From: a virus
Lineage: Duplodnaviria; Heunggongvirae; Uroviricota; Caudoviricetes
Strand: one strand, 5' to 3'
IMG/VR virus record: IMGVR_UViG_2703718850_000013
DNA length: 32,125 bases
The position numbers were made by a program, and so were the translations under genes. Shown piece after piece: positions 12,433-14,713 of this stretch. The notes under the pieces are model-generated. The model was not told where the DNA came from. It did not search any database and saw nothing but the letters and a program-made list of their open reading frames with translations. The first letter of the stretch is position 1. Each line of letters opens with the position of its first letter.

Positions 12433-12948
12433 GTGAAGTCACTCAGTCCATCACAAACATTCGACGCACTACAGGAATTTCTAGATAACCAGTTGATTTT
12501 CATAGGGATGTCACTCGATCTTACACCACAGACGTTAACAGGTTCGACCGCAGGGGCATCATTCAGTGCCTCGAAGTTAACAGACAAAATTCAGCAAAAT
12601 ACATTTCTTGCAAAACAAAACAACCTGGTTAAGTCAGTACTTCAACCTTTGTATATTAAGTGGCTCAAGAATGAAATGCTAAATAACCCGATGTTGAAGG
12701 ATTTGCCATTTAGTAAATTTACTGAACTAACTGAATGTAATTTCATTCCACAACGTCATATTAGTCTAGACCCACTGAAAGATTTACAGACTGAGATTCT
12801 CGCAATGGAAAATGGATTAAAGAGTAAAGAACAAATAATTTCTGAGATGGGCTATTCACCAGTACTAACCCATGAGCAGATTACTAAGGAAGAAACAGAT
12901 GGAACTAAACAACCAGACGAGGGCGATTCAAGCACAGACAATCAGTAA
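12433..12948 (+). CDS. portal protein, C-terminal segment (GTG start immediately after the in-frame stop)
   Basis: Same reading frame as 11437..12429, separated only by TAA (12427-12429) and GAT; DPLKDLQTEILAMENGLKSKEQIISEMG resembles the lambda gpB C-terminal DGLKEVQEAVMLIEAGLSTYEKECAKRG. Confidence 0.6.
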   Translation: MKSLSPSQTFDALQEFLDNQLIFIGMSLDLTPQTLTGSTAGASFSASKLTDKIQQNTFLAKQNNLVKSVLQPLYIKWLKNEMLNNPMLKDLPFSKFTELTECNFIPQRHISLDPLKDLQTEILAMENGLKSKEQIISEMGYSPVLTHEQITKEETDGTKQPDEGDSSTDNQ

Positions 12949-14713
12949 TGACGGTATCGTTAGTATTGCATTTGCAAGTGAATTCCCCGTACAACGTGAA
13001 ATAAACGGTAAGGTATATGATGAAGTACTGCTATGTGGTACTGATAACGTTGATCTTTCCCGTATTAATCAATACATGTGCCCACTACTAATTGACCATG
13101 ACCAGGAAAAACAAATTGGTTCAGTACTTAATGCTTCCATTGATACCGACCGCGTAGCACGTGCTGAAGTAAGTTTTTATGACACTGAATCATATATCTA
13201 TGACATGGTTAAAAAAGGCATGCGTGATGGTATTAGTGTTGGTTATAACATTCTTGATTATTACATCGATGGTATCAAGTTAATTGTTACCCGCTGGATG
13301 CCATATGAAATCAGTAGTGTAGCTTGCCCCGCTGATTATGTAGGTTCCGGAATTAATCGTTCTCTTCCAACTATAAATACAGATGTACAAAACGAAGAGG
13401 AAAATCAATTCATGGATGAACATAATCAAGGTACTGAAGAAGAGATTACTGAACCAGTACTGGAAGAAGAAGTAATTACTGAACCAGAATTACAGGAAGT
13501 TGAAGAAGTACAAGAAGAAGTTATTACCGTAGTTGAACCAGAAGAAGAGATTACTGAACCAGTACTGGAAGAAGAATCCAGTACTGAAGAAGTAATTGAA
13601 GAACCAGAAGCTGATGATTCAATTCGCGTAAATGAAATTCGTAGTATCGGTAGTACTTTCAATATTGAAGAAAGCATTATTACTACAGCCATAAATACAA
13701 ATACTAGTACGGAAGAATTTAAGGAACAAATTCGCAGTACTGAAAAACAAAACCCTAACGTTAAGGAAAACAAAAAGATGGATAAAAATCTAATTAAGGC
13801 AATGGTCGAAGCCGCAAAACAAGATCGCGAAGTACAATTTGAAGGTGCTGAACGTGGTATCAACGGTGGTTTTATTCGTAATTTCACTGGTGCAGAAACT
13901 ACCCCAGCAACTGGTAATGATCTGGTACAACAAGTATATGCAGATACTTACATTCCAGAACTACTGAAGCGTTCAGTACTGGTAAAACTAAACCCAACTG
14001 TTATTTCCGGTCTAGCGGGTCGTGGTGTACTAAATCTACCAGTAGCAAAAGGTGTTACACCTGCATTTAAATTCTACAAAGAAGGCGAAGCGGTTGCGTC
14101 CAGTGTTGCAGAATTCGGTTCAATGATTATGTCCCCGAAAATCTTCGCAGGTGAGATCCCAGTTTCAAAAAGTCTGATCCTAACCTCTCCAAACGCTGAA
14201 GCATTTGTAGAAGCTGAATTACTACGTCATGCCGCAGTTGGCCTAGAATCTTTCGTATTCGGTGAAGTACTCGCAAAGGCTCCAGTACTGGATTCCGCTG
14301 CATCTGGTATTATCGACGAAGCTGACCTACAAGCTGCAATGGCAAAACTCGGCACCGCTAATGTAGACACCGCTACTTGTGTTGCAGTAATGAACTCTAA
14401 GCAAGTTGCAGCATTCCGTCTACAACCAATCGCAGGCAATCACGCTGCAATTATGATGGTTGGTCCACAGACTGATGCAGGTCGCACTATTGGTGGTGAA
14501 CTATTAGTAATCGTGTCCGAGAACGTTCCAGACGGTTCAGTACTGATCGGTGACTTCTCCCAGCTCTATATTGCACAGTGGTCTGGTCAAGAAATCGACA
14601 TGGATACTACTACCTACCGTAACCGTGCACTAGTAGCGTATCGTGTTTGGGATTACCTAGACGTTGCATTGTCCCGTCCTGAGTACTTCCTAAATCTAAA
14701 AGCTAAGGCTTAA
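12899..14713 (+). CDS. prohead protease (HK97/S78-like) fused through an acidic repeat linker to an HK97-fold major capsid protein
   Basis: N-terminal [11 protein letters not shown] matches the conserved PLLWxHD..PIG protease motif; central [12 protein letters not shown] repeats; long C-terminal domain in the capsid position. Start moved to ATG 12899 (AAGGAAG SD) from track 12872. Confidence 0.75.

Follow-up and report, generated by a model that had tools for sequence, protein, structure and literature searches.

Fusion of a head maturation protease to a major capsid protein in one gene has been described in several phage systems. In Gifsy-2 of Salmonella, a tripartite capsid gene encodes an N-terminal protease, a central segment presumed to be scaffolding and a C-terminal capsid protein of the HK97 fold, according to two papers (PMC8538268, PMC12315714) that cite Effantin et al. 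(2010, Virology 402:355). A fusion of major capsid protein and protease has been reported in the Rhodobacter RcC cluster (10.1101/2021.08.04.455094), and the SEA-PHAGES class "major capsid and protease fusion protein" includes phages of clusters AU, EE, AN and AW (PMC9671004, PMC9753647, PMC6606914). Similarly, Pseudomonas phage PPpW-3 carries a protein annotated as "major capsid protein and peptidase U35" and Xanthomonas phage Murka one annotated as "major capsid protein and protease". Here we describe a gene of this kind in a 32,125-nucleotide stretch of viral DNA (Caudoviricetes; IMG/VR record IMGVR_UViG_2703718850_000013), which is referred to in its full length as the window. The gene lies on the plus strand at 12899-14713 and encodes a protein of 604 residues, and the numbering of this form is used throughout. 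The kind of fusion is already known; the window protein is an uncharacterised member of it, for which RefSeq already has an entry of exactly the same sequence.

Compared by description to the gene of Gifsy-2, the window gene shows the same single protease-central-capsid layout, the same type of setting in a lambdoid-type prophage of Enterobacterales and the same position directly after a lambda-family portal gene. The Gifsy-2 protease is reportedly ClpP-like rather than of the S78 family, and its capsid is said to use a gpD-like decoration protein (work attributed to Effantin et al. in 2010); a decoration gene was evident nowhere in the head region of the window. The SEA-PHAGES fusions, likewise compared by description, share the annotation class and come from Gram-positive hosts. 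The proteins of PPpW-3, Murka, R4C and the RcC cluster (PHROG 617/4523) are closer, with homology over the whole length, S78 and PF05065 domains and the same gene neighbourhood, but they are only 24-31% identical to the window protein, have linkers other than its acidic repeats and lack the internal start signal at Met294 (Met294/AAGGA) that is considered below. Compared to gp4 and gp5 of HK97, the window protein has the same S78 protease, capsid fold and helical N-terminal extension at the position of the delta domain, and in both cases there is no separate scaffold protein; the HK97 protease, however, is a separate gene product, whereas that of the window is tethered by an acidic spacer of about 90 residues. 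According to Duda et al. in 2013, the HK97 protease is said to enter the prohead by means of its C-terminal tail. Papers on the Shiga toxin 2 (Stx2) phage Sp5 and on the Type I cyclic oligonucleotide-based antiphage signalling system (CBASS) were rejected as precedents for the fusion, since their subjects are a separate scaffold and a fusion of protease to scaffold. The gene and its parts are as follows.

12899-14713, plus strand: the fused gene, 604 codons and a stop in the list of open reading frames, encoding protease, acidic spacer, helical segment and HK97-fold capsid domain
12885-12892, plus strand: Shine-Dalgarno motif of the main start, TAAGGAAG, inside the 3' end of the portal reading frame, with AAGGAAG or AAGGA at the same place in relatives
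12947-13336, plus strand: prohead protease domain, residues 17-146
13337-13609, plus strand: acidic low-complexity spacer, residues 147-237, delimited by composition, length range and predicted confidence
13436-13471, plus strand: direct repeat copy 1, exact over 36 nucleotides and encoding a 12-residue repeat, residues 180-191
13541-13576, plus strand: direct repeat copy 2, exact over 36 nucleotides and encoding the same 12-residue repeat, residues 215-226
13610-13819, plus strand: conserved helical segment, residues 238-307, from AlphaFold secondary structure, conservation and TIGR01554
13913-14710, plus strand: HK97-fold capsid shell domain, about residues 339-604, the predicted mature capsid protein, from PF05065, Foldseek and the R4C chain

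We hold with good confidence that an enterobacterial siphovirus-type prophage here encodes a self-contained polyprotein for head assembly, in which protease, spacer, helices and shell are made as one chain. The reading frame is uninterrupted across all 604 codons. From stop to stop it spans 12872-14713, and its first ATG, at 12872, would give an alternative form of 613 residues; the start at 12899 corresponds to Met10 of that form and has TAAGGAAG 6 nucleotides upstream. The coding sequence that RefSeq gives for the prophage of E. coli N61 begins at the equivalent of 12899 and has 604 residues, and in the relatives the aligned Met start is preceded by the same Shine-Dalgarno motif. The identical protein of that prophage is WP_061348620.1, labelled "phage major capsid protein". 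The window itself is an enterobacterial prophage. The complete E. coli N61 chromosome (NZ_AP028880.1) contains a prophage of 99.98% identity to it, which adjoins yggS and carries a large serine recombinase, and an E. albertii assembly has a contig of 99.8% identity. The fused protein is identical in E. coli N61 (604/604) and 99.7% identical in E. albertii, with 604/604 residues aligned. A megablast search with positions 8500-20000 of the window found no relatives at the DNA level among isolated phages, which are related at the protein level only, at 24-31% identity.

The fusion is a property of the family and not of this copy. The phrog_617 profile of 626 positions was matched end to end (residues 8-611 against positions 2-623, E-value 9e-77), and phrog_4523, named "major head and protease protein", was matched as well. 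Among 5.8 billion proteins searched, 130 homologues were found, nearly all of them 570-640 residues long and many with precomputed matches to both PF04586 and PF05065, from E. coli, Shigella, Citrobacter, Klebsiella, Pseudescherichia, Rahnella and Serratia. The DNA comparison covered the 24 related loci that yielded the complete fused gene, namely 18 enterobacterial prophages, the phages PPpW-3, Murka, DCP80 (E. coli) and R4C, and loci from Ferrimonas and from an uncultured proteobacterium; the reading frame was open over the whole fused gene in every one of the 24. In the window, no separate protease, scaffold or decoration reading frame lies between the end of the portal gene (12948) and the next gene, for head completion, at 14719. 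NCBIfam holds a model named "prohead protease/major capsid protein fusion protein" (NF045541), an "exception" model for one specific protein, against which the window protein scored 102 bits with a cutoff of 525. The alignment covered residues 20-303, that is, about the first 270 positions of the profile. Judged by these matches, the window protein appears to share the protease and linker part of that protein without being that protein.

The N-terminal domain appears from its profile matches to be a divergent member of the S78 proteases. When the N-terminal 173 residues were scanned alone, Pfam Peptidase_S78 (PF04586) was matched with an E-value of 7.7e-8 and 33.1 bits against a cutoff of 21, and fold comparison with the predicted structure placed the domain in the assemblin-like fold of the herpesvirus protease. 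The motif noted earlier at residues 62-74 holds His67 (codon 13097-13099), in LLIDHD, and the invariant Gly74. Ser113 (codon 13235-13237), in ISVGY, was invariant in all alignments made (A1-A4, including relatives at 22-27% identity). The same held for His67 in A1, A3 and A4, and of the 71 sequences of A2 at least 90% have it; Glu137, Ser139, Asp146 and Arg154 were also invariant. By analogy, His67 and Ser113 are the putative catalytic residues. This pair stands almost where His65 and Ser114 do in HK97 gp4, which we take to be the catalytic residues of that enzyme.

The C-terminal domain is a capsid protein of the HK97 type. PF05065 (Phage_capsid) was matched by the C-terminal ~260 residues with an E-value of 9e-15 and 55-57 bits against a cutoff of 24.2. 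An AlphaFold2 model, built on an alignment of 71 sequences, gave a confident beta-rich domain at residues 17-146, a low-confidence arm at 328-348 and a confident HK97 fold at 349-604. With this last part, Foldseek retrieved the capsids of phiXacJX1 (9lbm), R4C (8gta), D3 and HK97 at E-values of 3e-15 to 1e-12. The top match, phiXacJX1, was considered as a possible member of the fused family and was dropped, as the fused protein of Murka has no sequence match to 9lbm.

Between these two domains lie an acidic spacer and a helical segment. The spacer's core of 84 residues contains 31 Glu and 3 Asp but neither Lys nor Arg, and residues 147-237 are predicted to be disordered and without secondary structure, with a predicted local distance difference test (pLDDT) score of 25-35. 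The spacer is 49-114 residues long in the 71 homologues, and acidity alone is conserved. The two 36-nucleotide copies are spaced 105 nucleotides apart, and their exact match is far beyond chance. P0002, a protein from the databases, differs from that of the window by the lack of exactly 35 residues, one period of the repeat; it comes from a single short-read assembly, in which an exact repeat of 36 nucleotides could have been collapsed by the assembler. The deletion may reflect either natural recombination between the repeats or such a collapse, and it is a hint only of linker plasticity; given the possible collapse, it was dropped as proof. Further along, helices are predicted at residues 238-253, 258-266, 271-284 and 298-307, the first three with pLDDT values of about 74-81, and R243, E246, A264, I265, S270, F274 and K275 are conserved. 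TIGR01554, which covers HK97-type capsid proteins including their N-terminal delta domain, aligned residues 245-601 to profile positions 13-384 with 68 bits against a cutoff of 27.5, and the helices fall in the delta-domain region of the profile. As the helices are conserved and lie within that region, residues 238-307 are, on the predicted model, the likely equivalent of the delta domain or scaffold and a better scaffold candidate than the acidic tract. The tract itself, being disordered and hypervariable, is in the model probably a flexible tether that holds the protease inside the shell rather than a scaffold.

Collectively, these results confirm the observation made in the sequence-only reading of this DNA and support its interpretation in part. 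That reading had described one polypeptide joining a protease, an acidic repeat linker and a capsid protein, with an HK97-type prohead protease motif at the N-terminus, near-exact repeats in the acidic tract, a long C-terminal capsid-like domain and no separate scaffold gene. A single reading frame, the motif at residues 62-74 with its Peptidase_S78 match, the 12-residue peptide encoded twice by an exact direct repeat, the matches to PF05065, TIGR01554 and the HK97 fold and the lack of a further reading frame between the portal gene and the gene at 14719 bear these points out. The N-terminal domain has both S78 homology and fold, and the fusion is found throughout the family, so that neither a missing protease nor a frameshift joining two genes overturns the claim.

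Processing of the protein can be proposed by analogy with R4C, a roseophage of Dinoroseobacter. The R4C capsid (8GTA) was the best sequence match among solved structures. Its gene product gp006 has 629 residues and is encoded directly after a lambda-family portal. The alignment of gp006 to the window protein begins at the protease motifs and extends as far as the C-terminus, at 25% identity and an E-value of 1e-27. The deposited virion chain, 8GTA_A, comprises residues 362-629 only (268 of 629) and begins with GGVLV; its start corresponds to about Gly339 of the window protein (nucleotide ~13913), just past the nearly invariant Thr334 and Thr336. This chain supports, without proving, the loss of the N-terminal 340-360 residues in the family. 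From the precedents of HK97, Gifsy-2 and R4C, the shell domains would assemble on the portal to form a prohead of the T=7 type (T, triangulation number) with the N-terminal parts inward, and the covalent tether would stand in for the targeting peptide that brings the separate protease into the HK97 prohead. The protease, activated by crowding within the shell, would then cut off and degrade everything N-terminal of about residue 339 and leave a shell protein of about 266 residues, which would expand on DNA packaging.

A further feature of the gene concerns how many products are made from it. Nested initiation of protease and scaffold has been reported for gp17/gp17.5 of HFTV1 (10.64898/2026.09.13.751334). 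As in lambda C/Nu3, UL26/UL26.5 of herpes simplex virus 1 (HSV-1) and HFTV1, an in-frame start past the protease domain would give a shorter product with a shared C-terminus and would set the stoichiometry. In those systems, however, the shared C-terminus is the scaffold, whereas here it would be the shell protein, and the start is deduced here from conservation. A literature search found no description of nested initiation in which the capsid shell protein forms the shared C-terminus. Two candidate sites were recognised.

13763-13780, plus strand: candidate internal start 2, with AAGGA at 13763-13767, a gap of 10 nucleotides and ATG at 13778-13780 (Met294), assessed by conservation, codon use and RNA folding
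13397-13414, plus strand: candidate internal start 1, with GAGGA at 13397-13401, a gap of 10 nucleotides and ATG at 13412-13414 (Met172), at the junction of protease and spacer

At Met294, a candidate in-frame start and its putative ribosome-binding site are conserved beyond what the protein sequence needs, with constraint at synonymous sites. Initiation there would give a capsid protein of 311 residues without protease and spacer, and Met294 lies in a disordered stretch between helices 3 and 4. A Met is present within three alignment columns of position 294 in all of the 71 homologues. The DNA comparison for the internal starts was made with 19 loci of the enterobacterial clade, which represent about 10 lineages below 60% protein identity, and AAGGA was found 7-13 nucleotides upstream of the Met294 ATG in 19/19. 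The predicted pairing with the anti-Shine-Dalgarno sequence was in the top 2-10% of the internal ATGs of each gene. The Lys codon in the motif was AAG in 17/17 aligned sequences, compared to a gene-wide AAG use of 27%, while the conserved Lys columns that flank the motif were AAA in 15/16, 16/16 and 12/12. The chance of such retention is about 0.27^10, or ~2e-6, an approximate figure as the lineages are not fully independent. The Shine-Dalgarno motif of the main start, inside the 3' end of the portal gene, served as a positive control and showed the same preference, with AAG as the Lys codons in 9/12. Furthermore, RNA folding around Met294 was weaker than the gene median in 18/18 sequences, and the peptide that begins there, M-E/D-K-x-L-I, resembles a normal N-terminus.

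The evidence for Met172 is weaker than that for Met294. Most of the 71 homologues have a Met 13-26 residues past the invariant Arg154, and 64 have any Met within 45 residues. An SD-like (Shine-Dalgarno-like) GAGGA or AAGGA accompanies the Met in 13/13 loci that have it, and Met172 is absent from 6/19. Internal initiation is the simplest reading of these patterns of conservation, and we see an even or slightly better chance that initiation at Met294, and perhaps at Met172, supplies protease-free capsid subunits in the enterobacterial clade. One mRNA read in one frame would then yield products from the ATG at 12899, possibly from that at 13412, and from that at 13778, the last a near-mature form of 311 residues that has a short propeptide; we are evenly balanced on this scheme. 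The product from 13412 would be a spacer-scaffold-capsid form of 433 residues, and the frequencies of initiation at the three ribosome-binding sites would fix the ratio of protease to scaffold to shell.

Several points weigh against the polyprotein and nested-start interpretation. Peptidase_S78 was found solely when the N-terminal domain was scanned alone; the scan of the whole protein listed just Phage_capsid, and the databases therefore name the protein simply "major capsid protein". TIGR01543 gave 19-23 bits, below its cutoff of 59, and comparison of the protease domain with solved structures by sequence, as a single sequence and as a 15-sequence profile, gave nothing meaningful. The 8GTA chain may list the modelled residues rather than the mature N-terminus, processing is not discussed in the R4C paper, and the catalytic activity, cleavage site, triangulation number and products of the window protein are all inferred. 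Among the distant relatives, the internal Met and its Shine-Dalgarno motif are absent from DCP80 and R4C and weak or absent in PPpW-3 and Murka; the Met294 signal is therefore clade-specific and not required by the fused design. Finally, the portal gene of the window has a nonsense codon, so the window copy may never assemble heads.

Other explanations of the gene were considered alongside these points. The fusion could be an artefact in which a sequencing frameshift or a lost stop joined a protease gene to a capsid gene, and the window does hold at least one suspicious single-base change, the TAA in the portal gene. The complete E. coli N61 genome, however, has the identical open frame and the E. 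albertii assembly one of 99.7% identity, and over 130 homologues, with identities as low as 24%, share the uninterrupted architecture and the length. Since the frame is open in the 24 loci, the homologues have the fused length and phrog_617 is matched over its 626 positions, such an artefact is excluded for practical purposes. It had also been proposed, in the sequence-only reading, that the linker probably acts as the scaffold. The lack of a separate scaffold gene, the position of the tract between protease and shell domain and the often acidic, partly disordered character of scaffolding regions in other phages (a matter of general knowledge) would fit this proposal. The acidic repeat tract is nevertheless unlikely to be the scaffolding domain itself, as it is predicted to be fully disordered, varies between 49 and 114 residues with no conservation of sequence beyond its acidity, lacks a whole 35-residue period of the repeat in P0002 and is followed by the conserved helices that align with the delta-domain part of TIGR01554. 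The preferred assignment remains that of tether for the tract and of scaffold equivalent for the helices. The same reading had taken the head module as HK97-like, beside a lambda-like terminase, portal and tail, and took this to indicate mosaicism. The observation stood: the terminase is gpA-type (PF05876/PF20454) and the portal lambda-family (PF05136), lambda has another protease and capsid set, no matches to Peptidase_S49, Phage_cap_E (gpE) or gpD were found among the window proteins, and no reading frame suited to their roles lies between portal and fused gene or directly beyond the latter. The inference of mosaicism was not supported, because the order of terS, gpA-type terL, a gpW-like gene (~160 residues), lambda-family portal and S78-capsid fusion is the same in 24/24 loci, in hosts and phages of Enterobacterales, Pseudomonas, Xanthomonas, Ferrimonas and Dinoroseobacter, from alpha- to gammaproteobacterial. 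S78 domains also follow lambda-family portals in contigs of Chitinophagales, Lachnospiraceae and Cohaesibacter, and in the enterobacterial prophage loci L006-L018 the terL, portal and fused gene products match those of the window at broadly similar identity, ~30-50%. A recent splice of the head module from an HK97-like phage into a lambda-like genome is thus very unlikely; with its order conserved over all related loci, the combination of gpA terminase, lambda-family portal and S78-capsid is an old co-inherited module.

The strongest competitor of internal initiation holds that the full-length polyprotein alone is made, and that the internal Met codons with AAGGA or GAGGA are relics of once-separate protease, scaffold and capsid genes or have another role at the nucleotide level, for instance in mRNA stability or in the pausing of ribosomes where two domains meet. 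It agrees with the distant relatives that have the same fused design without the Met and the Shine-Dalgarno motif and with the absence of the Met172 site in 6/19 loci, and coding sequence rich in Glu and Lys readily yields GAGGA or AAGGA strings. What it explains less well is that AAG was kept in 17/17 sequences over about 10 lineages with saturated synonymous sites while the adjacent conserved Lys codons are AAA, that the Met is retained in 71/71 homologues, that the gene's own start bears the same AAG signature and that the site combines low local RNA structure with an M-E/D-K N-terminus downstream. We regard the relic or other role as a real but less than even possibility.

A fused protease and capsid protein is a compact way to place the maturation protease in a closed shell. 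Prophages of E. coli, Shigella, Citrobacter, Klebsiella and Serratia commonly have this design. The label "major capsid protein" alone in the databases leaves the protease and the processing step unannotated. If the internal start is used, it would explain how about 415 copies of the protease per head are avoided, and the nested-gene principle of lambda and the herpesviruses would extend to the capsid protein itself. The internal start aside, the result is an ordinary and correct recognition of a known architecture.

The portal gene upstream of the fused gene has two features of its own.

11437-12948, plus strand: lambda-family portal gene (PF05136), split by a TAA at 12427-12429 into two open reading frames in the same frame

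In the prophages of E. coli N61 and E. albertii, this codon is CAA (Gln) and the portal protein is intact, with 503 residues; the TAA of the window is either a private C-to-T nonsense mutation or a base-call error. The portal and fused genes overlap by 50 nucleotides (12899-12948), and by ~47-53 in all relatives (e.g., loci L024-L028, ~6001-6053), with the Shine-Dalgarno motif of the capsid gene encoded within the Lys/Glu-rich C-terminal tail of the portal protein. The conserved overlap suggests translational coupling.

Other genes of the window were observed in passing. In E. coli N61, an element of the IS3 family of insertion sequences lies at the equivalent of ~19496-19500, in a structural gene of 964 residues (17102-19996, plus strand) which is uninterrupted in the window; the two near-identical prophages are damaged in different genes, the portal in the window and the 964-residue structural gene in N61. 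Just upstream of terS, a SMODS-domain nucleotidyltransferase gene (7133-7909, minus strand) and a SLATT-domain gene (7912-8421, minus strand), which owe their names to a precomputed Pfam match and to RefSeq's annotation of the identical prophage in N61, look like a defence-system pair. The terS-like reading frame itself (8580-9101, plus strand; TTG start, phrog_57) overlaps that of the gpA-type terL (9019-10938, plus strand) by ~80 nucleotides. For terL, the start given in RefSeq corresponds to 9046 (16047 in locus L005), compared to a first ATG at 9019. Between the head-completion and tail genes, a reading frame of 560 residues (15456-17138, plus strand) matches a "major tail protein" PHROG with its N-terminus and several tail-fibre PHROGs with its C-terminus. 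Its homologues in related prophages have 800-1233 residues with Peptidase_S74, a fibre chaperone domain, and the product may be a side or head fibre.

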